A stretch of 64,000 bases of DNA from Scenedesmus sp. PABB004 (GCA_014905635.1 JABVCE010000022.1:124001-188000), one strand, 5' to 3'; positions 4,749 to 63,460 are shown, counted from the first letter of the stretch. Notes: generated by a model not told the origin, from the letters alone. A program made the numbers and translations.

Positions 4749-6750
4749 ATGTCTTTCCTCTCCGCGCGCGAGCATGGCGCCAAGCCGGGCTCCGGAGGCG
4801 TGGCCTCCGCGCAGCAGGAGGTGCGGGGCGCACGTACTGAGGGCGGCGGCGCAAAGGCCGCGGCCGCCAGTGCAGCGGCGCCACGCGCGGCAGCAGCAGC
4901 AGCGCCGGCCGCCTCACGCCGCCGCGCCGCCGCCCCGTGCAGAACATCGACCGCCGCGAGCGCCTGCGGCGGCTGGCCATGGAGACGATCGACCTGGCCA
5001 AGGACCCGTACTACATGCGCAACCACCTCGGCCAGGCGCGCCGGCACCGAGCGCGGCGGCCGGAGCAGCGGCACTGCCGGTGGCGGCGGCCCCCCCCCGC
5101 CCCCGCCCTTGACGCGCGCCCGCCCGCGCCGCCGCCGCCGCCGCCGCGCAGATCGAGTGCCGCCTGTGCCTGACGCTGCACGGCAACGAGGGGAACTACC
5201 TCGCCCACACGCAGGCGCGCGCGGCGCGGCGGCGGCGTCAGTCGCGGCGGCAGCTGCGGCGGCGGCAGCGCAGCGCGGCCGCCGCGCGCGGGGCCGCGCC
5301 CAACGCGCCGCCGTGCCGCGCCGCGCAGGGCAAGCGGCACCAGCAGAACCTCGCCAAGCGCGCGGCGCGCGAGGCCGCGGAGCAGCTCGCGGCGCCCGCG
5401 CCGCAGCGGCGCGTGCAGCTCAAAAAGACGGGTGCGCGCCGCGCGCCGCGCCGCGCGGCGCGCCCGCTGCCGCGTGCCCGACGCTGACCGCCGCGGGTGC
5501 TGGCCCGCGGCCCCGCCCGTTTCAAACCGCAGTCAAGATCGGGCGCCCCGGGTACCGCCTGACCAAGCAGTACGACCCGGAGAGCCGGCAGCGCTCCATG
5601 CTCTTCCAGGCGCGCGCGCGCCCGCCGCGTCCGCCGCCCTGCGCGCCCGCCTCCCCCGCCCGGCGCGCGCAGCCCCCCGCCGCGCTCGCCCCGACCTGGC
5701 CGCCGCGCTCGCTGCCGCCGCCAAGCCAACGCCCACGCACACACAAAGCCAACACAAACGCCCCCCCCCCCCCCCCCCCAAACACACACACACACACACG
5801 CGCCCACAGATCGAGTACCCCGAGATTGAGGACGGCACCCGCCCCCGGCACCGCTTCATGTCCGCCTACGAGCAGCGGGTGCGCACCCGCCGCCGCCGCC
5901 GCCGCCGCCAGGGCGCAGCGAGGCGAGGCGGGGCGCAGCAAGGCTGGGCGCGGGCCGCGGCTCGCCCGCTCGCTGGCGCGCGCGCGCACGGACGCCGACG
6001 TCCCTCCCCGCCCCGCCCCGCCTGCGCCGCGCGGCTGTGTGGACGGTCGCGCAATCTGACGTGGTCAGATTGAGACCGCTGACAAGAACTACCAGTACCT
6101 GCTCTTTGCGGCCGACCCCTACGAGACCATCGCGTTCAAGGTGCCCAACCTCGAGGTCGTCAAGCAGGAGGAGTACTGGTTCGCACACTGGTGCGGCGGC
6201 GCGGCGGGGGGGGGGGGCTGCGGGGCTGCGGGGGCTGCGGGGGGGGGGGGGGGGGGGGGGGGCTGCAGGGGGGCTGCGCGCGCTGCGCGGCTGCAGCGCA
6301 GCGCGGCGCGGAGCCTGGAAGGAGCGCCGCCGCGCGGCCGCCGCGCGCCCGCCCGCGCAGGGACCCCGACACGAGCACGTACACGCTGCAGATCGTGTTC
6401 AAGGCGCCGCGCGAGCAGTTTGGCCGCCCGGGCGGGCCGCCCGGCGGCGGCGGGCTCCCGCCGCCGCCGCCGATGGTCGGCGGGCTGCCGCCGCCGCCGC
6501 CCGTGCTGATGCCGCCGCCGCCGCCGCCGATGCTGGGCGGCGGCGGCGGCGCGCCGCCGCCGGTGAGCGCTGGCGGGGCCCGCCGCTGGCTGGGGCACTG
6601 GCGCCGCGCGGGGCAGGCAGCGCACGCGCTGGGTGGGGGCCCCTCGCTCGCTCGCTGCCTTGCCGACGCCGCGCCGCCGCCCCATGCGCGCAGGGCCTGC
6701 CGCCGCCGCCGCCCGTGCTGGTGCCGCCGCCGCCGCCGAAGATGGGCTGA
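4749..6750 (+). CDS. SF3A2: U2 snRNP splicing factor 3A subunit 2 (SF3a66/Prp11)
   Basis: Nine exons: IDRRERLRRLAMETIDLAKDPYYMRNHLG, ECRLCLTLHGNEGNYLAHTQGKRHQQNL (U1C-type Zn finger), VKIGRPGY, PRHRFMSAYEQR, YQYLLFAADPYETIAFKVPN, and a Pro-rich tail ending PKMG*. Confidence 0.96.
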
Positions 6751-6907
6751 GGGCGCTGCGCGGCTGGCGCGGGCGGCTGCAGCAGCAGCAACAACAGCCG
6801 CGCCGGGAGGCACTGCGCGCGCGACCGGTGAGTCGCTTCGTTGTTAACGCGCCCCCGATCCGCGGAGCGCCCGCGACCGCCGGGACCGCCGCCGCCGCCG
6901 CCGGCGC

Positions 6908-8163
6908 TCAGATCTGACGCAGCTCGTCCCCGTCCGCGGGTGCCGCGGCGCCGGCGCCGCCCGCGGCCAGCTGCAGCTCCGCCTTGAGCGCGCTCAGCAG
7001 CAGGTCGTGGTCCCACACCTCGGGCGGCTCCGCCACCTGCGGCGGTGGCCGCGGCGGCGACGCCGTCAGCGCGCGCCCTCCCGCCCGCGCACAGCGCAGG
7101 CAGCGCGGTCCGCGCGCCCCGCCGCCGGCCGCGCGCGCGGCGTCCGGACCTGCTCCGACGGCAGCAGGCGCGCGGTGAGGAGGGAGAGGTCGATGTCGTC
7201 GTCGGTGGCACGCCGCGACGGCAGCCAGCCCCGGTCCGCCTCCAGCTCGGCCACTGCCTGCACGCGCGGCCCGCCGCCGCGCGGCGCGCGCGCGACCTGC
7301 GGCGCCCCCGCCCGCGCGGCAGCGGAGCTCGGGAAACAAAACGGGGGCGCGCGGGGAGGCGCGCTGCTCGGCGGCAGGCGTGCGGCCAGCCGGCCGCGGC
7401 TGGCGGGCCGCGCCCCCCGCGGGCGGCGCGGCAGGCGCACCGCGCGCATGACATCCTCGCGGCCCTCCTCCTCCAGCTCCGGGATGTTCCCCACGCCCTC
7501 CACCGCCTTGTCATCGTACTTGCAGCGCTGCCGCGCCTCCACCCTGCGGGGCGCGGCGGTGCGCGGGGGTGCCGCTCTGCGGCGTTTGCACGCGGGCACG
7601 CCATGCTGCGCGCGACCGCCGCCGCTGCCGCCGTGACTCACTGCTCCTCGCGCTGCAGCTGCTCCTGCTTGCGCCGCGACACGCCGGTGAAGCGCAAGGC
7701 GCCGCCGTCGGGGTCGCCGGCCGCGCCGGCGGCGGCGACGGCAAGGTCAAAGCCCACGCGCTTGGCCGGCGGCGCGGGCGGCGGCGGCGACTGCAGCTGC
7801 GACGGCGACTGCAGCTGCTGCAGCTGCTCCGGCGGCCCCGCGCCCGGCGGCGCCGCCTCGCGCCCCCCGCGCTGCGAGCCCTGCGACGACAGCTGGCGCA
7901 GCGGCGCCTGCGGCTGCAGCGCCTGCTGCTGGGTCGGCCCAGGCTCTTGATCGGCGGCGGCGGCGGCCGCCGCCGCCGGCTCCTGGATGGCCACATGCCG
8001 GCCCGCGCGCCGCCCCGCCGCGGGGCGCGCCGCCTGCGCGCGCGCCGGCAGCGGGGTCAGGCCGCGCGTTGTGTGGCGGGCGGCGGCAGGCGCGCAGGTG
8101 GCTCCCCGCACGCACCCGCATGGGGGAGAAGCCCTCCTCGCCTGCTAGCGGCGGCGGGTCCAT
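6908..8163 (-). CDS. IFT43: Intraflagellar transport protein 43
   Basis: Exons give TGVSRRKQEQ, IPELEEEGREDV, VQAVAELEAD, DDDIDLSLLTARLLPSEQ and VAEPPEVWDHDLLL, the IFT43 C-terminal signature. Start MDPPP...FSPMR at 8163 is inferred. Confidence 0.85.
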
Positions 8164-10126: not shown

Positions 10127-10499
10127 GGAGGAGAGCGCGACGGCGTTGCGCGGCGGAGGGCGGAGAGCGCGGCCAGCGCAGCGCGCGGCGCAGCGGTATG
10201 CGGCCAGCGCGCGGCGCAGCGGCGGCGCGCGTGGCAGCCGGCGTGCGTGTACTCTAGCAGCAGACAGGCAGGAGGATTGAGGGAGAGGAACGTTGACGGC
10301 GGTGCAGCGGCGGCGTCGTGCGTGCTTCCGTTCGTTCGGTGCAGCGCTCGATACGGCAATTGCTCGCACCCCAGACCCATCGCGACGCCGTCCCTGGCCT
10401 CCCGCGCGCCCTGAGCAGCGAAACAGCGCGCACCAGCTCTTGCGCCCCTCTCGCGCCCACCGCAGCGCGCCGAGCCGCCAGCCGGCGCTGGCAGCAGCT

Positions 10500-12412: not shown

Positions 12413-14579
12413 ATGGAGCAGCAGATGGCGTGGCTCACGCCGCTGCAGCAAGGGGGCGCCTGGCTGCTCCAAGCTGCGGCGTCGTGCTCCGCGTTCTGCC
12501 CCATCGACCTGCCGCCCTCGCTGCTGCAGTACGCCGGCGGCGGCGAGGTGCTGGCCGTCGGCGGGCGGCGCTACCGCGTGCTGCGCCAGGTGCGGGTGGG
12601 GCGCGAGCGAGCCGGCGGTCGCCGCAGCAGCGAGGTGGCCGTGCACCCACACTCACGCACGCCGCGGCCGCCCGCCCGGCACGCGCCCTGACCCCACGCC
12701 CCCACGCCGCCGCAGCTGGGCGAGGGCGGCTATGCGTACGTCTTCCTCGCGGCAGAGGTGCCGTCGCCGGAGCGGCCGCTCGCCGGTCGCGAGCCGCCGG
12801 TCGCGATCAAAAAGGCGCGCCTGCCCCCCGGCAGCGGCGGCGGAGCGGGCCGCGCCGCCGGGCTGTGTGCGCGCAGCGCAGCGCGCGGACCAGGCCGACC
12901 CCGCCGCGCCGCGGCGCCGCCGCAGATCGTCGCCGCGAGCGGCGAGGCGCTCGCGTCGGCGCGGCGCGAGGTCGAGGTGCTGTCCGCGCTGTCGCACGCG
13001 GCCTGCCTGCCGCTGCTCGCGCACGCGGCCGTGGCGCAGGGCGGCGGGCGGGCGCACCACGTGCTGCTGGTCTTTCCGGCCTACGAGGCACGCTGTGCGC
13101 TGTGCTGCGCGCGCTCTGCCATGACAGCGCCTGGGCAGCCAGCGCGGCAGGCGCGGCAGCAGAGCGTGGGCCCTTCGGGGGGCGAGCCCCGCGCCCGCGC
13201 CCGCCGCCGCGCAGGACGGCACGCTCGCAGAGGAGCTCGCGCGCCTCGCCGCCGCGGGGCGGCAGCTGGGCAGCCGGGACGTGCTGGACATCTGGCGCCA
13301 GGCGCGCACGCGCGGCGCACGGCCGCAGGGCGCCGTGCGCGCTGCACCGCGACGCGCCCCCGCGTGCGCCCCCGCAGGTGTGCTCCGGCGTGGCCCACAT
13401 GCACGGCCGGGGCTATGTGCACATGGACATCAAGCCCCACAACGTGCTGCTGCGCCGCCCCGGCGCCGGCCGGCGCGGGGGCCAGCAGCCGCGGCGGCAG
13501 CAGCCGCTCGCGCCGCCGGCGCGCGCGCCAGCCATGTCGGCCGGCCGGGACAGCGACGACGGCGCGGCGGCGGCGGCAGCGACGACGAGCGCGACGCGGG
13601 CAGGAGCCTGGTGCGCGTGCGCGCGCGCGCGTGCGCGGGCCCGCGCCGGCCGCGGGCCGCCCCGGCGCCGCGGGTCTGGGGCCGGGGCCGCGCGCGGGCG
13701 CTGCACACACACTGGTGCCGCCCCGCCGCCGGCGCAGGTGGCACCCCGCGGCTACGAGGCGGTGGTGATGGACTTTGGCAGCGCCCGCCGCCTGCCCATC
13801 ACCGTGGCGAGCCGGGCAGAGGCGCTCGCGCTGCAGGAGGACGCAGAGGTGCACTGCCGGCGGCCGGCGCGGCGGCGGCGGCGGTCGCGGCGGCGGTGGC
13901 TCGCCCCGGCCCCGGCCCCGGCCTCCGCCGGCGCCCCGCGCCGACGCCTCGGCGGCCGTGCGCCGCGCCGCGCCCCGCAGGCGCACTGCACCGCCACGTA
14001 CCGACCGCCGGAGCTGTTTGACGTGCCGAGCACGTGCACGCTGGGTGGCGCGGTCGACGTGTGGGCGCTCGGCTGCACGCTGTGCGTCGGCGGCGCGGCC
14101 CGCGCGGCGCGTGCGCGCGCCGCTCGGGCGGGGCGCGCGCGCGGCGCAGGCGAGGGCCGGGCGGGCCCCGACCGCCGCGCCCGCCGCCCCTGCTGCCCTC
14201 GCTCGCACCCTCTCCGCCGCCGCCCGCAGCTATGCGATGATGTACGGCGCGTCGCCCTTTCAGCAGGCGCTGGACCAGGGCGCGAGCCTCGCTCTCGCCG
14301 TCCTCAAGTGAGCTGTAGCCGAGAGGCCGCCTGCCCGCCGGCAGAGCCTCGGCTGACCAGTCGCGCCTGACGCCCGCACCTGCGCGCCGCCGCCCCCGCA
14401 GCGCGCGAGTGCCCTGGCCCAGGCCGCCCGCTCCGCGCTACCCTGAGCCGCTGCACGGCCTCGTCGCGGCGTGCCTCGCGCCCGACCCCGCGGCGCGGCC
14501 AGGCGCGCGGGAGCTGGTGTCGCGGGCCGACGAGCTGCTGGGCGGGCCGCCGCTGCCCGACCCGCGCCCGCCGCCGTGA
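12413..14579 (+). CDS. Ser/Thr protein kinase, STK16/NAK-like
   Basis: LGEGGYAYVFL, VAIKK, HMDIKPHNVLL, VMDFGSA, HCTATYRPPELF, DVWALGCTL and YAMMYGASPF; eight introns, three of them GC-AG. Confidence 0.88.
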
Positions 14580-19522: not shown

Positions 19523-21236
19523 ATGCAGCGCGCCGCGGCGGGGTGCGCTTGCGGCGGGCCGCCATGGGCGGCAAGGCCGGGCTGCGCCCCACCCGCCGCC
19601 GGCGGCGGCGGCCGCGGCGCTCACGCCGCTGCGCCGTGCCGCGCCGCGCCGCGCAGGCCGCCGCCGCGCAGGCCGCCGCTGCCGCGGGCCGCCGCGCCGC
19701 GCCGCGCCGCGCCCCGCGCGCCGCGCCTCGCGGTCGCCGCGAGCGCGGTGTGGCGCCGCCTGGAGCGCAGTGGCGCGTGGGTCGCGCACCCGCGCGCGGC
19801 GCGCGTGAAGGGCGTCGTCCACTTCCTCGGCGGCGCGTTTGCCGGCGCCGCGCCGCAGCTCGCGTACAACGGGCTGCTCGAAGCCCTCGCAGACGGCGGC
19901 TGGACCACGGTCGCCACGCCTTACGCGGTCACGTTCCGGCACGACCAGTGCGCCAAGCAGGCGCGGCGCGCGTTCCTCGCCGCGCTGGAGGAGCTGCGCG
20001 CGGGCGGGCGCGGCTACCTCGCGCCGGCGGCCGCGCCCGTGCTGGGCGTGGGGCACAGCAACGGCGCGCTGCTGCACCTGCTCATCTGCAGCCTCGAGCC
20101 CGGCGCGACGCGCGGCAGCGCCATCATCAGCTACAACAACCTGTGAGCGGGTTGTCGGGGCGCGGCGCCCAGGGGGGGGGGGGGGCTGCCGCCCGGCGGG
20201 CCGCGGGCCGCCCGTGGCGCCGCCGGCCGCCACACAACCGCCGCAAAACCCCCGCCCGCCCGCGCGCCCGCCTGGCCGGACCGCAGGCAGGTGTCGGACG
20301 CGATACCCATCCCAGGGCTGCTCAAGGGCCTGCAGCCGACAGTGCAGGCGGCGCGCGGCGCCGGTGGCGGCAGCGGCAGCGGCAGCGGCAGCGGCAGCGG
20401 CAGCGGCAGCGACAGCGCGGGCGCGCGGTCGCCGGTGCAGGAGCTGCTCGCGGCGGTGGGCGGGTCGCTGCTGCTGGCGGAGCAGCAGCAGCAGCTGCTC
20501 GTGGGCGCGGCGCCGGCGCTGGACCAGCTGGCCTCCATCGTCAACGAGGCGCGCCGCCGCCGCCGCCGCCGCCGCCCGCGCTGCCGCCGCGCCGCCGCCG
20601 CGCCGCCCGTCACGCCCCGGCGCCATGCGCTGCACCGCGCCGCGCCAGGTCGGCGACGGCCTGACCGACTTTTCGCCCACGCCCGGCGAGAGCCGCGCGA
20701 TCGTGGCGGCGGGGTACGCGTGCCCCTCCACGCTGCTGGTCCAGTTTGAGGACGACTCGATCGACGAGACGCCAGAGCTGCTCGCCATCCTGGAGGCGCG
20801 CCTCGCGGCGCCCGCCAGCGGCGGCGGCGGCGGCAGCGACGCGGGCAGCGAGCAGGCGGCCGGCGGCGAGCAGGCGGCCGGCGGCGCGCTCGAGCAGGCG
20901 GCGGACGTCGACGGCGCGGCGGCGGTCGCGGCGGCGGTCGCGGAGGGCAGCGCGTGGAGCTCGGTCGACGAGGATGTTGACGTGGCGCGCGTGCTGCGCA
21001 CGCTGGGCGCGCTGCGGGCGGCGCGGCGCGAGCCCGCCAGGCTGCAGCGCCTCGTGCTGCCCGGCAGCCACGTCACGCCGTGCGGGGGGCCCGTGCGGCG
21101 CGATCCGGGGTTGCTGCCGGGCCCTGTCGACCTGCTGCTCGCGAGCACGGCCGGCGCGGAGAGCCAGGCGCAGCTGCGCACGCTCGCCGACCGCCTGCTG
21201 GCCTGGCTGGACGAGTGCCGCACGGCCGCCGCATAG
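19523..21236 (+). CDS. DUF1350 alpha/beta-hydrolase-fold protein, probably plastid
   Basis: KGVVHFLGGAFAGAAPQLAY..LL, VATPYAVTFRH, GVGHSNGALLHLL, IISYNN, DFSPTPGES, LLVQFEDDSIDET and LPGSHVTP; start uncertain. Confidence 0.85.
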
Positions 21237-21240
21237 ACGC

Positions 21241-24657: not shown

Positions 24658-27600
24658 ATGCAGCTCTCTGCGGAGCCGCAGGCGCTGCCGGCGGGCTTCT
24701 CGCCCTTTGCCGGCGGCGCGCACGGCCTGGCCTTCCTCCCGCCCACGCCGCCGCGGCCGGGGCACGCGCTGCCGCCGCCCAGCCCGGGCCCCGGCGCGCT
24801 GCCTTGGAGCCAGGGCCGCCCGGGCTCGGCCTCGCCCGCCGACGGCGGCTGGCCGTACGGCGCGGCCGGCGGCGGCGGCGGCGGCTTCGGCGGCCTCAGC
24901 CGCTCCGGCAGCGCCGTGTTCGGCGCGTCGAGCCCCGGCCCCGGCGGCGGCTCGCCGGGGCCGCTGGCGCCGGCCGACCTGCTGCTGCGCGGCGCAGGGC
25001 TCGACCCGCACGCCCAGCCCTGGGGCGGCGGCGGCGCGGGCAGCGGCGGCCTGCCGCGCCAGCTGTCGAGCGGCGCGCTGCGCCGCCAGGACTCGTGGGG
25101 CGACGGCGGCGGCGGCGTGTCGCTCGCGGCGATGGCCGCCGCGGGCGCGCTGCCGCCGCCGTACGGCTCCAGCCCGCTCACGCGCGCCGCGACGGCGTCG
25201 GCGCAGCAGCTCGCGCAGCAGCACGCGGCGGCCGCGCTCGCGCGCAGCCTCTCGGTCGACGCCGACGCGGCACCGCCGCACGGCGGCGCCGGCGTCGCGC
25301 CCGGCGGCCGCCGCGGCTGGGGCGGCCACGACGACGCACACGGCCGGCTGCACCACACCGCGGTCTACGACATGAAGAGGCGAGCCGACGCGCGCCGCTG
25401 CTGGCGCGGATGCTGGCGGCGCGCGCCTGGGGCGGCTGGGCGCCGCCGGGCCGCGTGGCGCTGACGCCGCCCGCCCGCCCGCCGCCGCCGCCGCGCGCGC
25501 CGCAGCCTGACGACGGCGCTGTCGCACGTGCAGGCGGGCACCGGCGACGTGCGCCGCATGCTCGGCGCCTGCACCTTCAAGCCGCGGCTGCCTGGTGCGC
25601 GGCGCGGGACGCCGATGTGGCGGGCGCTCCGCCGCGCGTGCCGCGCCCCACGCCGCGCCGCCGCGCCCGCGCCGCAGGGCTGACCAAGCTGGTGTCCCAG
25701 CTCTCGCGCGATGGCCACTGGGCCAAGGCCATGGAGGTGCGGCGCGCGCGCGCGCGCCGCGCCGACCGCGGCCGCGCCGCGCCACGGAGGCGCCGCCAAC
25801 ACCCAGCCCCGCACCGCCCACCGCGCCGCGCGCGCCGCGCCAGGTGTTTGAGTCCCTCGACGCCGTCGGCGTGCGCCCCGACACCACCATCACCAACGCC
25901 GCCATCTCCGCGTGCGACAAGGGCGGGCAGTGGGAGAAGGCGCTGGGCGTGTTCGGGTGCGGCGCGCGCGTGCGCCGCCTGCACCGCGCCGCTCGCCCGC
26001 GCCCGCACGCCGCGCGCCCGCGCGCCCCGCCCGCGCGCCGCGCGCCACACACGCCGACCCCGCCGCCGCCCCGCCGTGCGCGCGCGCGCCGCCGGCCGCA
26101 GCGCGATGAGCGGCGCGGGGCTGGGCCGCGACGCGATCACCTACAGCGCGCTCATCAGCGCCCTGTCCAAGGGCCGGCAGTGGGGCCTCGCGATCGACGT
26201 GTTCAACCACATGGTCGCCGAGGGCGTCGAGTGCGACGCGGTGACCTGCTGCTCCCTTATCACCGCACTCGACAAGGGCGGCCAGTGGCAGCTCGCCGAG
26301 CAGGCGCGCCGCCGCGCTCGCCGCGCGCACGCATGCCTCGCGCTCGCCGCGCCCGCGCGCTCCCGCGCCGCCGCGCTCGTGCGCGCACCCACACACTCCC
26401 ACGCGCGCTGATGTGTCCTCCCTCTCGGCCCCAACGTGCCGCGACAGGTGTTCATCCAGATGTACCGAGAGCACACGGTCTTCCACATACTGCTGGAGGG
26501 CATGACCCCAGACCCCAGCCCCGGCGGCGCCGGCCCCGGCGCCGGCGGCAGCCCCTCGCTGCTCGCGGGCGCGTTCAGCGCCGCCGCGCTGAGCGCACTG
26601 AGCATCCCGGAGGACGCGGCGCCGCCCGGCGGCGGCGACACCGGCGGTGAGTGCCGCGCCCGGCCCGCTGCGGCGGCGCCGGCGGGGCCGGCGCCAGCGC
26701 CGGCAGAGGCGCCAGCGGGCGGCGGCGGCCCCGGCGGCGGCCCCACCGCGCCCGGCAGCCCGGACGGGCCGCCCGGCGGCCAGCCCGGGCCGGCGGCTCG
26801 CGGCGACGGCGGCGGGCTCGTGCACACGCTGTCCGGCGCGTGGTCCAAGGTCGTCGGCGCCAACCGGGCGGCAGCGGCGGCGGCGGCCGCCCCGGCGGCT
26901 GCTGCGGCCGCTGGCCCCGCCGGCGCCGGCGACGGCGTCAGCCTGCCGAGCACGCTGCTGGGCAGCGCCAGCAGCGCGAGCAGCGCCGGCAGCGCTGGCA
27001 GCGTCGGCTCCCCGCGTGGCGCCGGCAGCGCTGGCAGCGGCGAGGGGCGGCTGGCCGCAAGCGACGCGGTCGTGCTGCTGCCCGGTAGGGCGTGGCCGCC
27101 GGGGCAGAGCCAACCAGGGCCGGGCCGCTCCGCGCCCGCGCCGGCCGCCGACGCCCCGCCGACGCCCCGCCCCGTCGCCGCCCCGCAGGCTCGGGCGCAC
27201 AGCCCGCGGGCGGCGGCGAGCCCGGCGGGCTCGCGGCGCGCTCGCTGTCCGCGCAGCTCTCCCAGGTCGGCCTGACCCCGCCCGGCGGCGCGGCGCCCGG
27301 CGGCGAGCCCGCGCCGCCCACGAGCGCCGCGGCGGCGCTGGTGCCCGCCGGCGCGAGCCCCTCGCGCAGCCGGCCGCCGGCGTGCCCGTTGCCGGCGGCG
27401 CAGCCCTCGCCCGCGCGCGTGGGCAGCCTCGGCCGCGCCGGCAGCCTCGGCGCCGGCTCGCCGGGCGGCGGCCTGCTGCGCCTGGGGCGGTCGGGCAGTC
27501 TGAACAGCAAGAAGTGCAGCCCCAACCGCGTCTGCTGTAACGCGCTGCTCGCGGCGTACGCCCGCGCCGTGCCGCCGCGCTGGAAGCAGGCACTGCGCCT

Positions 27601-30600
27601 GCTGCAGGCGCGCGCGCTTGGCACGCGCTGCGTGCGCGGCGGGGGGGGGGGGGGGGCAGCCGCGCGCCGCGCGCCCGCCCCCACTCTGCCCACGCCGCGC
27701 CGCGCGCCGCGCGCCGCGTGCCCCAGGTCATGTGGACGGCCGGCGGCGAGCTGGTGCCTGACATCGTGAGCGCCCGCGCGCGCGAGCACGCGGCGCCGCG
27801 CGCGGCCAGCACCGCGCGAGCGCCGTGCCGCGCTGCTGCCGCGCCGCCGCCTGGGCCTGAACCCTGAACCCTGAACCCTGAACCCTGTCTCTCCCCCCAG
27901 GTGAGCTACAACACGGTCATGAAGGCCTGCGGCAACGCGCAGCAGACCAGCACCGCGTTCGAGGTGCGGCGCGGCGGCGGCTCGCCCGGCAGCGCGCGCC
28001 TCGCACACCCGCCGCCGTGCGCCGCGGCCGCTCGGGCTGACCCTCCGCCGCCCGCCGTGCTGCGCGTCGCGCCGCGCCGCCACACGCACCCAGCTGTACA
28101 GCCACATGCTCGCGCGCGGCGTCGAGCCCACGGTCGCGACGTACGGCACCCTCATCACCATCGCCAGCGAGGCGCAGGACTACAGCCGCGTCAAGGAGGC
28201 CTGGGACTGGCTGCAGGCCAGCGGCCTGCCCGTGCACGTGCGCGCCGCGCCGCGCCGCGCCGCGCCGCGTGCGCTGCGGCGGCGGCGCGCGCTCGCGCGC
28301 GCGCGCCTGCGGGCTGGCTCTCCCTGACGGCCCGGCCGCGCTGCCGGCGCCCCCTCCCGCCGCCGCAGGTCACGTGCGCCAATTCCTACCTCACCGCGCT
28401 CATCAAGGAGGTGCGCCCGGCGCGCGGCACGCGCGCATGCGCTGCATGGGCGCGCGCCGCGCAGCAGACGCGCGCCGCCGGCGCGGCAGCCTCTTACGAC
28501 CCAGCGCGCGGCGCGGCGCCCGCGGTGCCGCCGCAGGACGCGTGGGACGCCGCGGTGGAGCTGTTCGGGCAGCTCAAGACCAACGCGCTCGGCGTGCGGC
28601 CCAACGCGGTGACCTTCAACATTCTGATGTCCGCCTGCCTCGCCCGCGACTCCCCGCACATGGCGCGTTGCGCCGCGCGCGCCGCCGCGCCGCCGCGGCG
28701 CTCGCGGACGCGCCGCCGCCGGCTGCCGCGACGAGCGCGGGCGCGCGCACCGCCGCCTGGCGTCGCCATGCGCCGACGCGCCGCCGGCCGCGCCGCCGCC
28801 GCGCCGCAGGTGCGGGGGCTGTTTGACGAGCTCGCGGACAGCGGGCTCACGCCCACGCTCATCAGCTACAACACCCTGCTGCACGCGCTCGCCATGCTCG
28901 GCGCGGTTGACGACGCGCTGCGCCTGCTGCAGCACATGTGCTCCAGGCGCGCGCGCGCGCGCACGGCGCGCGCCCCGGCGCCCCGCGGCGGCGGCCCCGC
29001 GCCGACGCGGCCGCGCCCGCCCGCCCCGCACCGCCCCGCGCAGCTCGAGCGTGCGTCCGAGCGCGACGTCGTTCAACACCGTGTTTGCCACGCTCGCCAA
29101 CGCGGCCGCCGCGGCGGGCGGCGAGCTGGAGCGCCAGGCGCTCTGCGCGCGGTGCGCTGCGGCGGGGCGGCGGCGGCGGCGGCGGCGGGGCCGGCGCGCC
29201 CCTGCACCGCGAGCACCCCGAGCGAGCACCGCCGCCCGCCACGCCCCAGGGCCCTGGAGGCGTACCGCCTGATGCTGGCCCAGCCGGGGCTGCACCCAGA
29301 CACCGCGCTCTTCCGCTCGCTCGTGGCCGCGTTTGCGGCGTGCGGCGCGGCGCGGCTGGTGGTGGAGCTCGCGCTGACCATGGGCGCGCAGGGCCACGCG
29401 CTCGACCCCGCGACCGCGGCGGCGGCGCTCGAGTGCGTGCAGCGCGAGGGCGCGTGGGGCGAGGCGGGCGCGCTGCTGCGCGCCGCGCACGCCGCCAGCG
29501 CGGTCGTGAGCCCGGTGCTGCTGCAGCGCCTGCTGCTCGCGTGCGCGGGCGAGGGCGCGTGGCGCGCCGCGCGCGAGGTGCTGCAGGTGCGCCCGCGGCG
29601 GCGGCCCCAGCCGCGCGCGCACGCCCGCCGGCCGCGACGCCCAGACGGCTCGCGCCCCGGCCGCTCACGCCCGCCGCCCCCGCTGCTGCCGCCGCCGCTG
29701 CCGCCGCCGCCGCCAGGTCGCGTGCGACAGGGGGCAGCTCGACGCGGTCGCCGAGCTGCTGCAGCAGCACCGCGCCGCGCTCGCGGGCGGCGGTGCGCCG
29801 GCAGGGCCGGCGCTGTGCGCCGACGTGCTGGACGAGCTGACACTGCTGGCCTTCCTGCAAGCCCAGCACGCGTCCGGCGGCTGGGCCGAGGGCCTCGCGC
29901 TGCTGCGCAAGCTGCGCGACGACCGCGGCCCCGGCTGGGGCGCGGCCAACGGCGCGCTGCTCGGCGCGCTGCTCGACCTGCTGCTCGTGCGCGGCGGCGC
30001 GGAGGGCGCGCCCTCGGCGGTCGCGCTGGTCGACGAGGCGCACGCGGCGGGTGCGCGCGGCGCGGCGCGGCGCGGGGCCTCGCACGCCGCGGTTGCTTGC
30101 AGGGCTCGATTCTCTGCGCGCGCGCCGCCGCCGGACCCGCTCTGCCCTCCCCCGACGGCCTGACCGCCCCCGCTGCCCCAGGCTCCATGGGTCACTACCT
30201 GGTCCACCCCTCCTCCCTGGGCGGCGGCGGCAGCGGCGGCAGCCCGTGCCGCGGCAGCCCGTGCGGCGGCAGCCCCGGCGCGGCCGCGCGGCGCGCGCCG
30301 TCGCCCGGCGCGGCCGGCCTCGCGGCGGGCGCGCTGTCCCCGGAGCAGGCGCTGATACTGCAGCTGGAGCACGCGGCTATCACCGGCAGCCCGCCGGGCG
30401 GCGCGCCCGTGCTCGGCGGCGCCGGCGGCGGCGGTGAGTATGGCCTGCCCGCGCCGCTGAGCTTCCTGGACGTGCGCGGCTGCTCACCGGTCGAGGCGAC
30501 GGCGCTGCTGCTGAGCTGGCTGGGGCAGCTCGTCGGCCTCGCGGGCGCGGGGCTGCCGCTGCCGGGCGAGGCGCTCCGCATCATGACCGGCGGCGCGGGC

Positions 30601-31076
30601 GACGTCGCGCCGGAGGAGCTGGGCGCCCTGCTGCTCTTCCGCCCCGCGCCGCCGGCCCCGCCGCACGGCGAGGCCGGCGGCGGCGCGGCGCGCGCGGGCG
30701 AGGCGCCCGGCCCGGCGGCGCCGGGCGCGGCGGCGCCGAGGCCGGCGGCGCCGCGGCGCCCGCCCGCGCCGGCAGCAGCCCCGCCGGCGCCGGGCCGGCG
30801 GCGGCCGCCGGGCGCGCCGACGGGCCCGGCGGCGGCGTGCACGGCGCGGTGCTCGCGGTGCTGTCGGGCCACCTCGCCCGCATGCTCGGCTGCGGCACCG
30901 CCATGGACATGCTCCTGCCCTTCTCCTCCGCCGGCCGGCTCGCGCTGGGCCTGGTGTGCTGCGGTCCGCTGCCGGCGCTGCTGCCGCCCGAGGAGCAGGG
31001 CGGCGGCGTGCTGCTGCCGACGGCGGCGCTCGCGCGCAGCATCGCCGCCGCGCTCGAGGTCGCGCACGGCGGCTGA
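24658..31076 (+). CDS. Pentatricopeptide repeat protein with a C-terminal SMR-like domain
   Basis: PPR motifs (PDTTITNAAISACDKGGQWEKAL, DAITYSALISALSKG, PNRVCCNALLAAY, SYNTVMKAC, PTVATYGTLI, PNAVTFNILMSAC, PTLISYNTLL). C-terminal FLDVRGCSPVEA..LLSWL..LRIMTG resembles SMR. About 15 introns; apparent frameshift near 30710. Confidence 0.85.
27856..27887 (+). repeat. Interstitial telomere-like repeat (CCCTGAA)~4.5 in a PPR gene intron
   Basis: cctgaaccctgaaccctgaaccctgaaccctg; a one-base variant of plant-type CCCTAAA. Confidence 0.8.
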
Positions 31077-43338: not shown

Positions 43339-44484
43339 ATGGCGCTCCACGCCGCGTCGCACCAGAGCTGCACGGCGTGGACGAGCGCCGTGGCGGCCCG
43401 GGGGCGGCCGGCGCTGCTCTGTGCGGGCCGGCAGCGGCGCGCGCCGGTGCGGGCACCGCCGCCGTGCGGCGCCGCCGTGCGGCGCCTGCGTGCGGGGCCG
43501 CCGCTCAGACGTGCCTCTGCGTCGCCGCGCGCCGCTGTGACCTGCTGCCGCTGCCGCGCTGCTGCTGCGCCGCTGCCGCGCAGCGCGGCGCCCGCGCAGT
43601 GGCGCGCGCGGGGCTCGCCGAGAAGCTCCTGGCGTCGCTGGACCTGGGCAAGCAGGGCCGCGTGAAGACGCTGATGGAGCTGTACACCTCGCCCAGCCGG
43701 TGCGCCCGCGGCACGCGCGGCGCGGCGCGGCGGGCCGGCCGCTGCCCCCTGCGGCAGCGCAGCGCGGCGCACGCACACCGCCGCCGCCGCCGCCGCCTCC
43801 AGGGAGAAGCTGGAGGCGGTGCTCGCCGACGACTTTGCGATGGGCGAGGAGGGCTTCTCCCGCAAGTTCACCAAGCAGGACTACATCAAGCTGATGTGCG
43901 ACGCGGTGCTGCCGGCGGTGCCCGACTTCAACTGGACGCCCGCGACGAGCGGCGCGGTGGACCGCGACGGCTACTGCATCGTGACCGTGCAGGCGCGCGT
44001 GCGCGGCGCGGGCGCGTGGGGCTGGCGCGCGCGGCGGCGCTGGCGCGTGGGGCTGGGACTCGGGGGGCGCCTGCAGGCACGCGGCAGCTGCCGCGAGCGC
44101 CGCCGGCGCCGACCGGCCGCCGCCGGCGCGCGCAGGCGAGCGGCCACCACACGGGCGCGCCGCTCGTCATGCCGGGCCTGCCGCCGCTGCCGCCGAGCGG
44201 CAAGCACTTTTGCCTCGCGCCCGAGGTGCAGAGGGTCCGGGTCAGCGGCGGGCGCGTCAAGGAGATCCTGGTGCGTGCGCCTGCGGCTGGCCGCAGCGCG
44301 CCGGCCGTTGGCCGCAGCGCGCCGCTGCTCCCCCGGTCGGCGGCCGCCCCCCTGACGCGCGCGCGCACGCGCCGCAGGTCCTGCCCGCCAAGGGCGCGGG
44401 CCGCGCGCGCTGTACGCCGCGCTCGGCGGCGGCACGCCGCCGCCGGGCGCCGCGACGCCCGACGCGGCGCCGCCCATGCCGTGA
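43339..44484 (+). CDS. Small NTF2/SnoaL-like (ester-cyclase-fold) protein with a probable transit peptide
   Basis: Five exons: ..EAVLADDF..DYIKLMCDAVLPAVPDFNW..IVTVQASGHHTGAPLVMPGLPPLPPSGKHF..RVRVSGGRVKEI. The fold call comes from the 'PD / GHHTG / PPSGK / GRV.E' pattern. Confidence 0.7.
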
Positions 44485-44888: not shown

Positions 44889-47800
44889 ATGCAGCGCGTG
44901 CCCAGCGCCGATGCGCTGGCGGGCAGGGCGGCGTCCCGCGCCGCCCTGCCGGGCCTGGGCAGCAGCGTGGGCCGGCTGCGGCGCCGGCTCTCGGCGCGCA
45001 TCAGCGCGGGCGCCGCCGCGGCGCAGACCTGGTCCCTGCTCGCCTGCGCGCCGCCGGCGCGCCTGGGCAGCAGCGTCGCCACGGTGACGCGCCAGATCAG
45101 CGAGCGCTCGCTGCAGGTGCGCACGCGCGGGCGCGGGCGCCGCGGGCGTCGCTGCGCCGCGCCCGCCGCGACCCACGCGCGCGCCGTGACCCACGCGCGC
45201 GCCGCCCAGGTGCTGCACGCGGTCTCGTCGGCGTCGGCGGCGGCGGCCGCGGGGGGCGGCGGCGACGCCGACCTCAGCGTCGACCTCGACTGGCGTCCGA
45301 GCCTCAGCCGCGCGCAGGAGGTCATCTGCTGGAGCATGGCCGCCGTCGCGGCGACGTGCGCGTACGTGCTGACCGCGCCGCCGGCCTTCTCCGTCCCCTA
45401 CGCCACCTGCATCGGCCTCATCTTCGGCCTCCTCCTCTACACGCTGCGCGGCGGGCTGCTGGAGGAGATGTACAAGGCGCGGCAGCGGCAGAGCTGGCGG
45501 GCCGGCAGCGGCAGCGCTCGCGGGCCCGCTGCGACAGCGCTCGCGGGCCTGTTCCGGCAGCGCTGGCGGGCCGGCAGCGGCAGCGCCGGCGGGCCGGCAG
45601 CGGCAGCGCTGGCGGGCCCGCTGTGACAACGCTGGCGGCCGGCAGCGGCAGTGCTGGCGGCCTGCTGCGGCGCTAGCGGCCCGCCGCGCCCGCGCACGAG
45701 CCCCGCCGCCGCCGCCGCCGCGCCCGCAGGCGCGCGAGCGCATCGAGGCCGAGCTGGGCGACCCGGATAGCCGCTTCCGGCACATCGACAACCTCTCGGT
45801 CCACGTCAAGGTGCGGCCGGCGCTGCGCTGCGCTGCGCTGTGCTGTGCTGTGTGGCGCGCCGCACAGGGGGCGGGCGCCGGCCGCACGGTGGCGCAGCAC
45901 AGCCCGCGCCGCGCTGCGCGCCCTCCCGACCCGCCTGCCGACGCCCGCCGCCGGCGGCAGGTCAAGTCGTGCGGCACGCTGCCGCCGCCGGCGGCGAGCG
46001 CCGCGGCCGCGCGGCTGGCGCCGCCGGCGCGGCGCTCGCCCGGCGCGCCGCCCGTGCCGGGGGTGCACTGCTATCATGGCTTTGGCAGCAACACCTGGTC
46101 CTGGTCGCTCGTGCAGCAGGCGCTCGCGGACCGGCTCGGCGCGCTCGTGACCGCGCACGACATGCCGGGGTTCGGCCTCACGCAGCGGTGCGGCGGCGTG
46201 CGGCGTGCGGCGCCGCCGGCGGTGGGCGCCCGCGGCCCCGCTGGCTCGCTCGCGCGCGCGGCGCGGTCTTTGTCGCCCACGCGCCCACACCGCGCGGCCC
46301 GCCACGCGCCCAGGCCGACCGATCTGTCCGGGTACTATCTCTCGTTCAACGGCCGCCTGGGGCGGCTCGCGCTGGACTATGAGCTCGCCGTGCGCGGCCT
46401 GCTGAGCGAGGCCGAGGCGAGCCGCAGCGGCGCCGAGGCCTACCCCCACGCGAGCGTGCACGACCCGCCGACGGGCGGCGGCGCGCCGGCCGACGCGGCG
46501 GCCGGCGCGGTCGCGGCGGGGCTGGAGAGCCCGCTGCAGGCCGCCGCCGCGGCGGCGGGCCGCGGCGACGCCGCCGGCGTGCTCGCGGGCGCCGCGGCGT
46601 CGGGCGCGGGCGCGGCACCGACCGGCGGCGGCGCGCGCGCCGCGGCGCCGCCGCCGTCGGCCGGCGCGGTGCAGCGCGTGCTCGTAGGGCACAGCCTGGG
46701 CGGCGCGTGCGCGGCGCTTGAATACATGGCCAGCCCGTCGGACTACGCCGCGGTGGTGCTGGTCGACCCGGCCATCATCGCCGGCCTGAGCGTCGGCCGG
46801 GCCGACCCCGACGGTGACGCGCCCGACGCGGCGGGCCGCCCGACGCTCGCGAAGCTGCAGGACGGCACCGCGTTCACGCGCAGCCTCGCGAGCGGCGACC
46901 ACGCGGCGCCCGAGGCGGCGGCCGCCGCGGCGGCGGCGGTCGCCGGCGGCAGCGAGCGCGCCGCGAGCGCCGACCTGGACGCGCTCGCCGCGGCGCAGGG
47001 CAACCTGTCGCGCAGCACGAGCAGCGCCGGCGGCGCCGGCGCGGGCGCTGCCGACGCCGCGGGCGCCGCCGACGCCGCGGGCGCGGGCGCGTCGCCGCTG
47101 CACGCCGCGGCGGCGGCGGGCGAGGTCGCGTTTTACGCGACGCGCGGCGACGACGAGACGTTTGCGCGCCTGCTCTCGCCCGACGCGCCGCGCAACCTGC
47201 TCGGCGAGGCAGCGGCGCGGCTGCTGGGCCTGCTGCAGGCGGGGTGCATGCTGACCGCGATGCTCATCATCTCGGCGCTGCGCCCCGGCATCGTGCTGCT
47301 GCTGCGCCTCGCCGTGCGCAGCCGCGCGTTCTGGGCCAACACGCTCAAGCAGGCGTACGCCGACCCGAACAAGGTCACGCCCGCCGCGGTCGACGCGTAC
47401 CGGCTGCCCCAGCTCGTGCGCGGCTGGGAGGCGGGCATGGTCTCGTTCCTGCTCGCCCGCCTCGGCGGCGGCGGCGCGCGCGGCGCGAGCGCCGCCGCGA
47501 GCGCCGTCGGCGCCGCGCCGCCGGGCGGGCTCGAGGACGCGCGCCTCGCGACGCGCTTCGCCGCGGCCGTCGCGGCGCACGGCACGCCCGTGCTCATCGT
47601 GCACGGCGCGGGCGACAAGGTGCGGCCCCGGGGCGCGCGGGGGTTCCACTCCGCCCTCCCTCCCTCCTCCCCCAGCGCCGGCGCGCCGCGCCGCACGCCG
47701 CACGCCGCACGCCGCACGCCGCGCCGCCTCGAGCCGCCGCCGCCGCCGCCGCCGCCGCGGCGCCGCAGCTGGTGCCGGCGAGCAACAGCTTCAACCTTGC

Positions 47801-48371: not shown

Positions 48372-48376
48372 TGTAA
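48372..48376 (+). terminator. Putative UGUAA polyadenylation signal of the hydrolase gene
   Basis: TGTAA about 445 nt after the stop at 47927. Confidence 0.45.
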
Positions 48377-48525
48377 AGTGGACTGACTGACCGGTCCCAC
48401 ACACAAACGCGGCGCGCGCACACGGTCTGCTGCGCGGATCTGCGGCGCCGCTGGGCCAGGACCGGGCCCGCCTGAACCCCCGCTCTAACTAACTACTCTA
48501 ACTGCTTTGATCGAGTGATCATCAC

Positions 48526-55798: not shown

Positions 55799-57174
55799 AT
55801 GATTCTCTCCACGAGCATAGAGCACCACGCGCCACGGCTCAGGCGCGAGCGCGTCAGGTGCGGCTCGTTCGCGGCGCCGCGGAAGGCGCCCTGCGCGCGC
55901 AGCCGCCCGCGTCCGCGCTGGCGCGAGCACTTGCAGCGCCGTGGCGCCCTCGCGGGGCGCGCCCGGGCCCGGGGAGGGTGCCCTGTGGCGCGTGCGGCGC
56001 GCGCCGGGGGCTGTCGGGCAGCCGCCGCGCCGGCAGGCGCGGCGGAGCCTTCCAACGCATGCGCCCGGCCGCGGCGCGCGCCCGCGCGCCCGCTGCCCGG
56101 CGGCGCCGTGCCCCCGGGCCGACCGCCCCCGCGCGTGGCCCCTGCGGCCGCCGCGGCGCGGTCTGGCGCGGGGCGCGCACCGCGCGCGGCAGCAGCGGCG
56201 GCGGCAAGCAGTAGCCGCGGGGCGCCGCCGCAGCCGCGCCCCCCCCCCAGCGACCGCGCGGCGCCGCCGGGCCCGCCCCTCACCGCACCCGCCGCGCCCG
56301 CCGCCCCGCCGCCGCGCCCCGCAGGCCGGCGCCGCCGCGCAGCCTGGTCGTCCACGGCGTCGCGTTCTGCTGGTTTGCGTTTGTCTGGGCCTGGCACCTC
56401 ACGCCCGCGGCCGCGCCGCTGCCCGGCAACGCCGGCTTCGGCTGGTTCTTCCGCTTCCTCACCTTTTACAGCTTCACGCTGCAGACGCTGCAGCTCGGCA
56501 TGGCGACGGTCGACGACTGGCAGCGCGCGGCGCGCGGGCGGTCGCGCTGGACGCGGCCGACCGACGACCTCGCGTGCGCGATCTTTGCGCTCACGCACGT
56601 CGTGAGCATCATGTTTTACACCATCCAGTCCACCACCAAGCTCGCGGTCGAGGGCGGGCACGTCGCGCGGCCGCCGTGGCTCGACGTGAGCGTGCACGGC
56701 CTCAACACGCTCGTCGCGTGGGCCGACCTCATCACGAGCGACCGGCGCAGCTTCAGCCGCACGAGCGAGCGCCTCAGCACCGTGCTCGTCGCGGCCTACC
56801 TCGCCTACCTGCTGCTCTGCCGGCAGATGAACGGGCGCTTCCCCTACCCCATCCTCAACGCGCTCTCGTGGCCCTGGGGCTTCTGCGCCCTCATCGGCGC
56901 GGGGCTGCTGCTCTTCGTCGTCGCGTTCCGGGCGGGCAAGCTCATGAACCGGCGCCTGCGGCACATCAGCCTCTCCATCTGCATCACCGACGCGCTCGAG
57001 CCGAGCAGCGACGGCGGCGCCGCGTCGTGCGGCGGCGCCGGCGGCGCCGCGAGCGACGACGACGGCGCTGCGCCGCTCGCGAGCGGCGGCGGCCGCGGCG
57101 GCCGCGGCGGCCGCGACGCGGCGCAGCTGCTCCTGTTTGGCGGCCTGCGGCCGCGCGGCGCCAAGGTGTGCTGA
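55799..57174 (+). CDS. FAR-17a/AIG1-like membrane protein
   Basis: Main exon from 56325: GFGWFFRFLTFYSF, VVSIMFY, VSVHGLN and AYLAYLLLCRQMNGRFPYPIL. Exon 1 (ATG at 55799, donor 55858) is tentative. Confidence 0.82.
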
Positions 57175-61511: not shown

Positions 61512-61719
61512 GCTGCTTCGCCGCTGCTTCGCCGCCGCCGACCTGCGCTGCTGCTGTTGCCGGGCGGGTGCGGGCGTGGCGGGTGCGGGCGAGCGAGCGC
61601 ACGGGGTCTGCTGCACGAGCCGGCTGTGGGGGTGTCGTCGGGGGTTGGCGCGCGCGGCGCCGGGGGTTGTTGGGAAAAGCGACCGCAGCGCGTGGTTCGG
61701 CTGTGTGCCCCGCGTGACG

Positions 61720-63460
61720 TCACCGCGCGAGGCACGCGTCCAGGTGCGCGTTGAGCGCCGCGTTGCTGATGCCGCCCGGCGGCCAGGCCTGCACGCACAC
61801 AGGGCACGACACGGCGCCGGCGGGGCCGCCCCGCTCCTCTCGTGGGGCGTCGTGGTCCGAGGAGGAGAGCAGCTCGACCACGTCCACGCCGCCGCCGCCG
61901 CCGCCCGCCCCGCCGCCTGGCGGACGCCCCTGCTGCTGCTGCTGCTGCTGCTGCCGCTGCTGCTGCTGCTGCTGCTTCCGCGGCGCCCACGGCACGGGCC
62001 GCGCGGCGGCGCCGCCGCCGCCCAGCACGCGCCCCCGGCCCAGCGCGCCCCAGTATGCGCCAGGCGCCTGCTGCTCCTGCTCCTGCTCCTGCTGCTCCTC
62101 CCGCTGCTCCCCTCGCTGCTGCTGCCCGCGCTCGCGGTCGCCCGACTGCCCCTCGCCCTGCCGCTGCCGGTCCGGCTTAAAAAAGGTGGCGATGCTGGGC
62201 GTGCCGGGCGGCGCGGCGCGCCTGGCGCGCTTGCCGCCGCCCGCCCCCGCGCTGCCCCCGCTGCCCCCCGCACCGGCCGGCTTGTCCGGCTCGGCAATCT
62301 TCACCCACTCGCCGCCGCAGTGCCGCGCGTGCGCGTGGAAGCCGCAGCGCGCGTCGCCGCAGTACGCGCCGGGCGCGCCCGCGGCGACCGCGGCGGCGGC
62401 GCCCGCCTTGGTGTACGCCCTGCGCGGCGGCGCGCGCGGGGCGGCGCCCCCGCTCGGCGCGGGCCCGGCACGCACGCCAGCGTGCAGCGAGGAGCGAGTG
62501 CGCGCGCGCGTGCGCGCCTGCAGTCGGCCTCCTGCGGGCGCCGGTTGGTCGCGCGGCGCAGCTCGTCGCCGCAGCGCGCGCAGCGCCAGACGTGCGTGCG
62601 GTACGCGGCGACCTCGGCAAGCATGGTGTGGCACACGCTCACGTTGTAGCCGCCCGGCGGCCGCTGCGCCGGGGCGGGCCAGGGCGGCGCGGGCGCGGGC
62701 GCGCTCGCAGCGCGCGGCGGCGGCGCCGGCGGCGCGCGGCACCGCGGCGTGCAGCTCTGCGGCGTGTGGCTGCGCGGCGCGCGGCTCCGCGGCGCGCCTC
62801 GTGGTCGGGGCACGTCGCGGCGTTGATGGCGTGCATTGCCGCCTGGAAGCGCGGCCCGTGGTCGCCGTCGGCCGCGTGGTCGCCGGACAGGAAGAGGCGC
62901 GCGTGGATCATCTCATGCAGCAACGTGTCCTTCAGGTCGCGCAGCGGCCTGGCGGCGAGGGCGGCGCGGCGCACGGGCGGCGCGGGCGGCGTGGGCGGCG
63001 CGGGCGGCAGAGCGCGCCCCGCGGCCGCGGCGCGCGGTGGCGCACCGGAACTTGATCAGCGGCTCGGACAGCCGGATGCGGCACCCCGCGCCGGGCGCGA
63101 AGGAGCACTGCCCCGCGCAGCTGCGCGCGGCGGCGGGCGCGCGGCGCAGCGGTCGGCGCGGCGCTCGCGCGCGCGGGGCCTGGGGCCAAGCGCCGCCCTC
63201 GCGGCTGCGCGGCTGGGTGCGGCGCGGCGGACGTTGCCGCACAGCGTCATGCGGCGGCTCGACCACTCCACGCTGCAGGCGCCGAGCGCGCGGTTGAAGT
63301 AGACGGCGTCGTAGTGCTGGAACAGGGCGTGCAGCGAGAAGCCCTCCACCGCGTGCGCCTCGCTCTCCTCGCCCAGCCCCGGCTGCGTGCAGCGGCGCCA
63401 TGCGCATGGGCCCTCCTCGCCCTGCCCCGGCGGCGGCGCTGCGTGCGGCGGCGCCGCCAT
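61720..63460 (-). CDS. SprT-like DNA-dependent metalloprotease (Spartan/DVC1-like)
   Basis: LFQHYDAVYF..VEWSSRRMTLCAGQC, IRLSEPLIKFR, DTLLHEMIHA (HExxH), DHGPRF, HVWRC..C and HARHCGGEWVKI; PIP-like SIATFF, SIM-like VDVVEL and a C-terminal UBZ CPVC..NAHLDAC. Confidence 0.92.

Follow-up and report, generated by a model that had tools for sequence, protein, structure and literature searches.

Introduction

Introns that begin with GC and end with AG (GC-AG introns) average 1.2% of introns in plants (Pucker and Brockington, 2018), and a baseline of 1.3% is given for plants and animals (Iwata and Gotoh, 2011, BMC Genomics 12:45, PMC3033335). The latter authors report shares of 39.6% in Aureococcus anophagefferens, 22.2% in Micromonas pusilla and 7.7% in Chlorella sp., tie these shares to G+C content, and term their origin an enigma. 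Here we examine a 64,000-nucleotide stretch of DNA (hereafter the window) from the chlorophycean alga Scenedesmus sp. PABB004 (GCA_014905635.1, JABVCE010000022.1:124001-188000), a species whose genome exceeds 70% G+C (PMC12571836). We conclude that the window very probably carries genuine GC-AG introns of the major spliceosome (U2-type), that these make up about 12-19% of its introns, and that they belong to a splice code shifted toward G and C, for which GC pressure would be the origin.

Related observations come from several other algae. Among pelagophytes, GC-AG shares of 14-17% are given for Aureococcus and ~14% for Pelagomonas calceolata, compared with 0.32% for the low-GC Aureoumbra (bioRxiv 10.1101/2024.10.30.620910). 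The first 11 nucleotides (nt) of U1 RNA are the canonical AUACUUACCUG in Aureococcus, M. pusilla and Micromonas RCC299 (Iwata and Gotoh, 2011, PMC3033335). In Ostreococcus lucimarinus, introns outside chromosome 2 carry an atypical donor, GTGCGTG (Irimia and Roy, 2008, PLoS Genet 4:e1000148). A literature search whose scope did not include the genome paper of PABB004 (doi 10.1111/jam.15311) turned up no study of PABB004 or Sphaeropleales splice sites, and 'GC-AG' does not occur among the matches listed for Chlamydomonas, Scenedesmus, Monoraphidium and Raphidocelis. An earlier note on the window, made from the sequence alone, had listed 17 GC donors among roughly 100 introns, together with a donor code departing from GTRAGT. 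What is new here are the errors of a public gene model at five GC sites and the conservation of a kinase GC-AG intron in algae of ~50% G+C.

Abundant GC-AG introns in the window

To model introns, we wrote a self-trained Viterbi gene finder for exons and introns, in which coding sequence is scored by a 3-periodic Markov model. Introns were required to begin with G and to end in AG, whereas donor position +2 was left unconstrained and a single donor matrix served GT and GC donors alike. With flat site matrices applied to both strands, the 121 introns called begin with GC (52), GT (40), GG (21) or GA (8). After six rounds of self-training the calls become 92 GT, 62 GC, 4 GG and 4 GA (n = 162), and all 17 listed sites, each of which reads G/GC on its strand (the slash marking the exon-intron boundary), are recovered. 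In 21 genes, a count that leaves out any genes of 48000-55800, the sense strand yields 101 introns: 80 with GT, 19 with GC, one with GA and one with GG. The 19 GC donors agree well with the manual estimate of 17 among roughly 100. They lie in eight genes, in each of which restricting donors to GT costs 3.2 to 65 nats; the other 13 genes have GT donors only.

The base that follows any G in this DNA is C in 55% of cases, G in 28%, T in 9% and A in 9%, and the antisense strands of the same regions yield 45 pseudo-introns, 31 of them with GC donors. Exonic AG precedes just 3 of these 31 antisense GC donors, compared with 16 of the 19 sense-strand GC donors (Fisher p = 1.5e-7). The excess of GC-AG introns in the window is well above chance.

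Donors that are neither GT nor GC account for 2 of the 101 introns, and both were rejected as probable errors of the gene finder. At the GA donor at 22469, in the RCC1 gene, a GT site 21 nt away scores about equally well; at the GG donor at 27088, in the PPR gene, the same holds for a GT 3 nt away, which the public model uses.

Because 12 of the 17 listed sites are verified by homology, one is consistent with it and four are probable or ambiguous, while 19 GC donors are called, the GC-AG share is 12 to 19 of 101 introns (12-19%, or roughly one in six). The norm of about 1% that the earlier note had cited, to be set beside the published 1.2% and 1.3%, is thus far exceeded.

Junctions fixed by homologous proteins

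Homologous proteins place 12 of the 17 junctions with single-residue precision: three in SF3A2, three in an STK16-like kinase, five in a PPR gene and one in an alpha/beta hydrolase (Table 1). In SF3A2, where GC occurs at 3 of 8 donors, alignment with human SF3A2 from the PDB places residues 23-52(53) in exon 2, residues 54-74 in exon 3, and residue 75 onward in exon 4. The hydrolase homologues that carry names come from Tetradesmus, Scenedesmus, Monoraphidium and Raphidocelis.

The kinase was compared with 31 homologues from a full phmmer search. In homologues that lack a gap-free junction, the insertions sit exactly at that junction, and we infer that they are introns read through in those proteins' own gene predictions. 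Two homologues (P0012 and P0002) have insertions beginning exactly at FPAY(E or Q), apparently the same intron read through by the predictors. PDB searches with kinase exons 2+3 and with exon 4 gave no matches; a search with exon 5 matched kinases including STK16 (2buj) and is uninformative on the junctions.

Sliding the junctions produces no GT-AG pair with the same messenger RNA at any of the 17 sites, and at nine of them there is no GT within 15 nt on either side. The lengths of seven of the 12 verified introns are not divisible by 3, which means that the frame is preserved only if these introns are spliced out. Assembly errors that turn T into C were considered and rejected, given that twelve sites would have to be in error jointly and that one of the GC donors is conserved in other algae.

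Table 1. GC donors and their introns in the window. Lowercase, exon; uppercase, intron; in protein segments the slash marks the junction.
Feature	Coordinates	Strand	Donor	Evidence
GC-AG intron, SF3A2	5036..5151	+	cag/GCGCGC	Phase 0; human residue 53 then 54; no GT within 15 nt
GC-AG intron, SF3A2	5215..5328	+	cag/GCGCGC	Phase 0; human residue 74 (Q) then 75 (G)
GC-AG intron, SF3A2	5610..5809	+	cag/GCGCGC	Phase 0; Pfam SF3A2 profile 24 at exon end, resumes 24/25
GC-AG intron, STK16-like kinase	12815..12925	+	aag/GCGCGC	VAIKK/IVAAS gap-free in six homologues
GC-AG intron, kinase	13088..13214	+	gag/GCACGC	FPAYE/DGTL gap-free in 6 of 8 spanning homologues
GC-AG intron, kinase	13302..13377	+	cag/GCGCGC	IWRQ/VCSG gap-free in 3 of 5 spanning homologues (P0008, P0017, P0022)
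Doubtful extra GC donor, kinase	13473..13579	+	ccg/GCGCGG	Gene finder only; no exonic AG
Probable GC-AG intron, DUF1350 gene	20549..20648	+	gag/GCGCGC	Gene finder, coding potential, frame
GC-AG intron, PPR	25380..25505	+	gag/GCGAGC	VYDMK/SLTTAL gap-free against two T. obliquus orthologues
GC-AG intron, PPR	26304..26447	+	cag/GCGCGC	QLAEQ/VFIQMY identical in T. obliquus orthologues
GC-AG intron, PPR	27608..27726	+	cag/GCGCGC	LRLLQ/VMW gap-free against T. obliquus orthologues
GC-AG intron, PPR	28663..28809	+	atg/GCGCGT	Gap-free against T. obliquus orthologues; exact 35-residue PPR period preserved
GC-AG intron, PPR	28947..29043	+	cag/GCGCGC	QHMCS/SSSVRP gap-free against T. obliquus orthologues
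Putative extra GC donor, PPR gene	30690..30775	+	ggc/GCGCGC	Gene finder only; no exonic AG; region unaligned with orthologues
Probable GC-AG intron, CPSF2	35793..35943	-	cag/GCGCGC	Spacing fits human CPSF2 within ~3 residues
Ambiguous donor, gene called NTF2-like in the earlier note	43993..44135	+	cag/GCGCGC	Or in-frame GTGCGC 6 nt downstream
GC-AG intron, alpha/beta hydrolase	45477..45729	+	aag/GCGCGG	LLEEMYK/ARERIEA gap-free in 8 of 8 homologues
Probable GC-AG intron, SprT gene	62420..62517	-	cag/GCGCGC	Gene finder and frame; no GT within 15 nt
Probable GC-AG intron, Spartan-like SprT gene	62664..62797	-	gag/GCGCGC	Gene finder and frame; no GT within 15 nt

The public model of the PPR gene

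The PPR gene corresponds to the NCBI protein HT031_005424 [Scenedesmus sp. PABB004] (P0063 in our set), which maps to 24658-31073 on the plus strand with zero mismatches and whose model, the one public gene model compared here, has 15 introns, GT-AG throughout. All five GC junctions that we place in this gene are gap-free in both Tetradesmus obliquus orthologues. Specifically, at 25380 the public model uses GTCTAC 17 nt upstream, and 15 residues are missing; at 26304 it uses GTGACC 63 nt upstream, which deletes 21 residues; at 27608 the choice of GTGCGC 24 nt downstream inserts 8 residues; and at 28947 the use of GTGCTC 9 nt upstream loses 3 residues. The intron at 28663-28809 is read through, producing a 49-residue insertion, as is the GT intron at 28411-28536. 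The model thus contradicts the T. obliquus orthologues at six junctions, all five GC sites included, and judged by these proteins it appears to be wrong at every GC-AG site of the gene.

Orthologous kinase introns in other algae

A metagenome scan with two kinase homologues returned 79 loci, most of them distant and none from a close, very GC-rich relative. Five algal contigs of ~50% G+C (L049, L050, L051, L056 and L057, at ~3230-4090 in each) encode the kinase with introns at two positions shared with the window. At the position of 13088 the donor after FPVYE is gag/GCAAGT or GCAAGG, such that GC is used both there and in the window (GCACGC). At the position of 13302 the donor after IFLQ is cag/GTGCAG, with GT there and GC here. 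These five contigs lack an intron at the position of 12815, and in loci L001-L003 (68-72% G+C) the kinase is intronless. The earlier note had proposed looking for GT-to-GC switches at orthologous positions; for the kinase, this comparison gives one conserved GC and one T/C difference at +2. Because the orthologue of the 13088 intron already has GC in algae of ~50% G+C, at least one GC-AG intron predates the extreme G+C content, its positions +3/+4 having since drifted from the U1-complementary form.

Splice code of the window

The 80 GT donors read GTGCGC (27), GTGCGG (25), GTGCGT (4), GTGAG (18) or otherwise (6). They are therefore mostly of the GTGCG type (56 of 80) rather than GTRAGT, as had been claimed. 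The hexamers of the 19 GC donors are GCGCGC (14), GCGCGG (2), and one each of GCACGC, GCGAGC and GCGCGT, which bears out the claim that GC donors here do without the U1-optimal AAGT at +3 to +6. Among the 17 listed sites, 13 read GCGCGC (the others being GCACGC, GCGAGC, GCGCGT and GCGCGG), and 16 follow exonic AG, the exception being 28663 after TG.

Position by position, GC donors have G at +3 in 95%, C at +4 in 95% and G at +5 in 100% of cases; the corresponding values for GT donors are 97%, 74% and 99%. Exonic AG precedes 16 of 19 GC donors versus 28 of 80 GT donors (p = 1.7e-4), a difference that fits the proposed reliance on pairing at exon positions -2/-1. The motif AGGTGCG[CG] stands at a donor position in 23 of its 25 sense copies.

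All 101 acceptors are CAG, with G at -4 in 77% and C at -5 in 77%; the tract before is C-rich rather than T-rich, and the usual ending is CGCAG. This uniformity of CAG may be reinforced in part by the gene finder's self-training. CTGAC, CTCAC and CCGAC are enriched in the final 60 nt of introns, which are 87% G+C and have a median length of 127 nt. Homopolymer and dinucleotide runs occur in two SF3A2 intron segments (5740-5800 and 6195-6265), which contain a run of ~20 C, (CA) repeated ~8 times, and extended stretches of G in which GGGGCTGC units recur.

Remaining sites and gene content

The five junctions that homology does not fix differ in what bears on them. In CPSF2, the GC donor at 35943 agrees in spacing with the human protein, whereas the GT alternative adds 16 more residues; a homologue search with the 71-residue CPSF2 exon gave 241 candidates, none significant. 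At 20549 in the DUF1350 gene, where the junction lies outside the Pfam-covered region, a GT alternative (GTCAAC, 9 nt upstream) costs 10.5 nats. The two SprT junctions (62517 and 62797) lie in a stretch that has ~9-10 residues more than human Spartan (6mdw), so that homology leaves their boundaries unfixed, and these two sites, like 20549 and 43993, are without homology support. Pfam searches with single kinase, DUF1350, SprT and CPSF2 exons (E up to 5) returned partial matches too few to fix junctions.

The additional kinase donor at 13473 belongs to a stretch (13473-13737) in the activation-segment insert that is modelled as two short introns flanking a 31-nt mini-exon. Introns 13473-13579 and 13611-13737 jointly remove 234 nt in frame, and homologue lengths vary there, with one homologue (P0008) having a long insert. 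To judge from these lengths, the stretch may be coding rather than spliced.

The window is ~80% G+C (76-83% in each of 16 four-kilobase bins) and contains ~21 nuclear genes, identified by a codon-statistics scan and then by Pfam searches of 127 coding segments. These genes encode, among others, an LHCI protein, SF3A2, IFT43, coproporphyrinogen oxidase, the protein kinase, a DUF1350 protein, an RCC1 protein, the large PPR protein, CPSF2, a WD40 protein, RPL21e, a Bax inhibitor and a Spartan-like SprT protein. The LHC exon at 2575-2781 (minus strand) is identical over 67 of 67 residues to PDB chain 8cmo_6, 'Lhca6', and the alga of that photosystem I structure therefore shares this protein segment; we take the entry, 8cmo, to come from an alga of the Scenedesmaceae. 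Between 48000 and 55800 the coding signal is weak and conflicting on both strands, the AT skew is -0.19 to -0.28, and there are no Pfam matches. An Rfam scan of the window at gathering thresholds gave 0 matches, and hence no small nuclear RNA (snRNA) gene for U1, U5 or U6 within it.

Origin of the GC donors and alternative explanations

We consider it very likely that the GC sites are genuine U2-type GC-AG introns that form part of a splice code shifted as a whole toward G and C. In this code, the donor would be (A)G/GYGCG(C or G), and the acceptor a C-rich tract followed by CGCAG/. A strong mutational or conversion pressure from AT to GC would turn T at donor position +2 into C, and the C would survive where other contacts are present, above all exonic AG at -2/-1, plus G at +3 and G at +5. 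Recognition would then proceed through exon positions -2/-1 together with +1, +3 and +5. If C at +2 survives only with these other contacts in place, GC donors should for that reason sit where the species' own consensus is matched best. The link to extreme G+C content that the earlier note had suggested agrees with what is published on other GC-rich algae (PMC3033335; 10.1101/2024.10.30.620910). The description of the donor code as shifted is likewise accurate; it is not new, given that GTGCGTG had already been described in Ostreococcus (Irimia and Roy, 2008).

Several observations weigh against this explanation or narrow it. Splicing is deduced here from the fit to homologous proteins, from frame and from coding statistics, and for five of the 17 sites the homologues do not settle the boundary. 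The share of GC-AG introns comes from one 64-kilobase window and is not genome-wide. GC donors match the consensus AG/G.GCGC at 6.53 of 7 positions versus 5.45 of 7 for GT donors (p = 6.5e-6), a comparison that is partly circular and inflated, since the shared donor matrix biases GC calls toward consensus-like sites. GC pressure as the cause would be carried over from a correlation seen in other species, and among these Micromonas RCC299, at 64% G+C, has just 2.7% GC-AG introns (PMC3033335).

Among the alternatives, the most far-reaching is that complementarity to U1 is no longer the main means by which the 5′ splice site is read, that +2 is a free pyrimidine within a code AG/GYGCGS, and that recognition has changed in this lineage, a proposition we regard as unlikely. 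If it were true, an ancestral GCAAGT would have turned by drift into GCACGC or GCGCGC with splicing preserved, implying a change in snRNA sequence or modification, U1-C, Prp8 or U5. The corresponding rival for the GC sites themselves, that altered donor-recognition machinery (a variant U1 5′ end, U6 ACAGA box, U1-C or Prp8) reads C at +2 and at +4/+6, appears quite improbable to us. In its favor, C at +4 in both GT and GC donors and the predominance of C or G at +6 are mismatches to canonical U1, the GC donors lack the AAGT that such donors normally need, and the conserved kinase intron has drifted from GCAAGT in algae of ~50% G+C to GCACGC here. However, canonical pairing of U1 and U5 would itself lead one to expect exonic AG to be enriched at GC donors, GTGAG is still found at 18 of 80 GT donors, and U1 is canonical at its 5′ end in Aureococcus and two Micromonas species that show similar phenomena (PMC3033335), which by analogy would argue against a change of snRNA. 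The observation from which the earlier note set out is thus confirmed, and its interpretation is partly supported, the proposed snRNA change being the part to which these published analogues speak unfavorably.

It is also conceivable that the boundaries are mis-modelled, the true donors being nearby GT sites or the supposed introns being retained, in-frame coding insertions, such that the GC sites are an artefact of GC-rich DNA. The motif AGGCGCGC has 46 copies in the window, with 13 at modelled donors, 7 elsewhere on the sense strand and 16 antisense; it is common in this DNA, and the motif alone therefore carries little information. The finder invents GC donors for most of its antisense pseudo-introns, the public PPR model manages with 15 GT-AG introns, and the donor at 43993 differs by just 3.2 nats from the in-frame GTGCGC 6 nt downstream. 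Five of the GC introns (5215, 12815, 25380, 26304 and 28663) are multiples of 3 and free of stops, so that read-through is conceivable from the DNA; the homologues carry no insertion at any of them. Against mis-modelling, the 12 verified junctions are gap-free at the GC site, and GT alternatives delete or insert 3 to 49 residues in ways unseen in homologues. The absence of nearby GT at nine sites, the seven introns whose removal the frame demands, and the conflict of the public PPR model with its orthologues at five of five GC sites point the same way. As an account of the whole set, mis-modelling is refuted for the 12 homology-verified sites, and we judge it very improbable.

That these are U12-type (minor spliceosome) or other non-canonical introns has nothing beyond the non-GT start to recommend it and can be put at next to nil, because the U12 donor box, which is of the [AG]TATCCTT type, is absent from all 19 GC donors, whose hexamers contradict it, and the window's GT-AG introns share the same +3 to +6 consensus, donor and acceptor context, and CAG acceptor.

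Implications for annotation

If the GC sites are spliced as we propose, GT-only models of PABB004 are wrong at these introns, and the errors in the PPR gene (3-21 residues deleted, 8 inserted, and 49 gained by read-through) illustrate the consequences. The PABB004 annotation has already served as a reference for gene prediction in another alga (PMC13248705). Should about one in six introns be GC-AG, annotation restricted to GT donors would damage a large share of multi-exon genes, both here and in other very GC-rich algae. The matched pair of kinase introns, one with a conserved GC and one switched between GT and GC, could be used to ask whether GC donors originate by drift from T to C.

Comparison with known systems

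The GC-AG introns of the window resemble their ordinary plant and animal counterparts in being U2-type GY-AG introns with a better match at other donor positions and a near-obligatory exonic AG. The ordinary plant and animal consensus is AG/GCAAGT. The introns described here differ in that the reinforced consensus is the species' own GCGCGC and not the U1-complementary GCAAGT, and their frequency is ten to fifteen times higher.

With Ostreococcus, the window shares the GTGCG donor core of a green alga, with G at +3, C at +4 and G at +5. Ostreococcus is intron-poor and has a rigid ACTGAC branch box, whereas branch signals here are loose, with CTGAC, CTCAC and CCGAC enriched at most. Position +6 is C or G here and T in Ostreococcus, for which abundant GC donors go unmentioned in the parts of Irimia and Roy (2008) available to us. 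The pelagophytes resemble the window in their GC-AG share (12-19% here) and in the explanation by G+C content; they differ in being stramenopiles with <1 intron per gene, and in that their values are predicted from annotation (bioRxiv 10.1101/2024.10.30.620910).

The closest parallel is with the algae of Iwata and Gotoh (2011), which likewise combine a very GC-rich nuclear genome with GC-AG introns at no less than tenfold the usual 1%. At the scale of the window, PABB004 shows the same features, with G+C well above 60% and a share many times 1%. It differs from those algae in belonging to the Chlorophyceae (Scenedesmaceae), in its local G+C content of ~80% versus 66-70%, and in having ~5 introns per modelled gene; the share given here is homology-based and drawn from one window, whereas theirs come from genome-wide annotation. 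PABB004 thereby adds an intron-dense chlorophycean, with the highest G+C content so far, to the GC-rich algae already known for numerous GC-AG introns. The abundance of GC-AG introns in this window is a further very GC-rich, intron-dense example of a phenomenon published since 2011.

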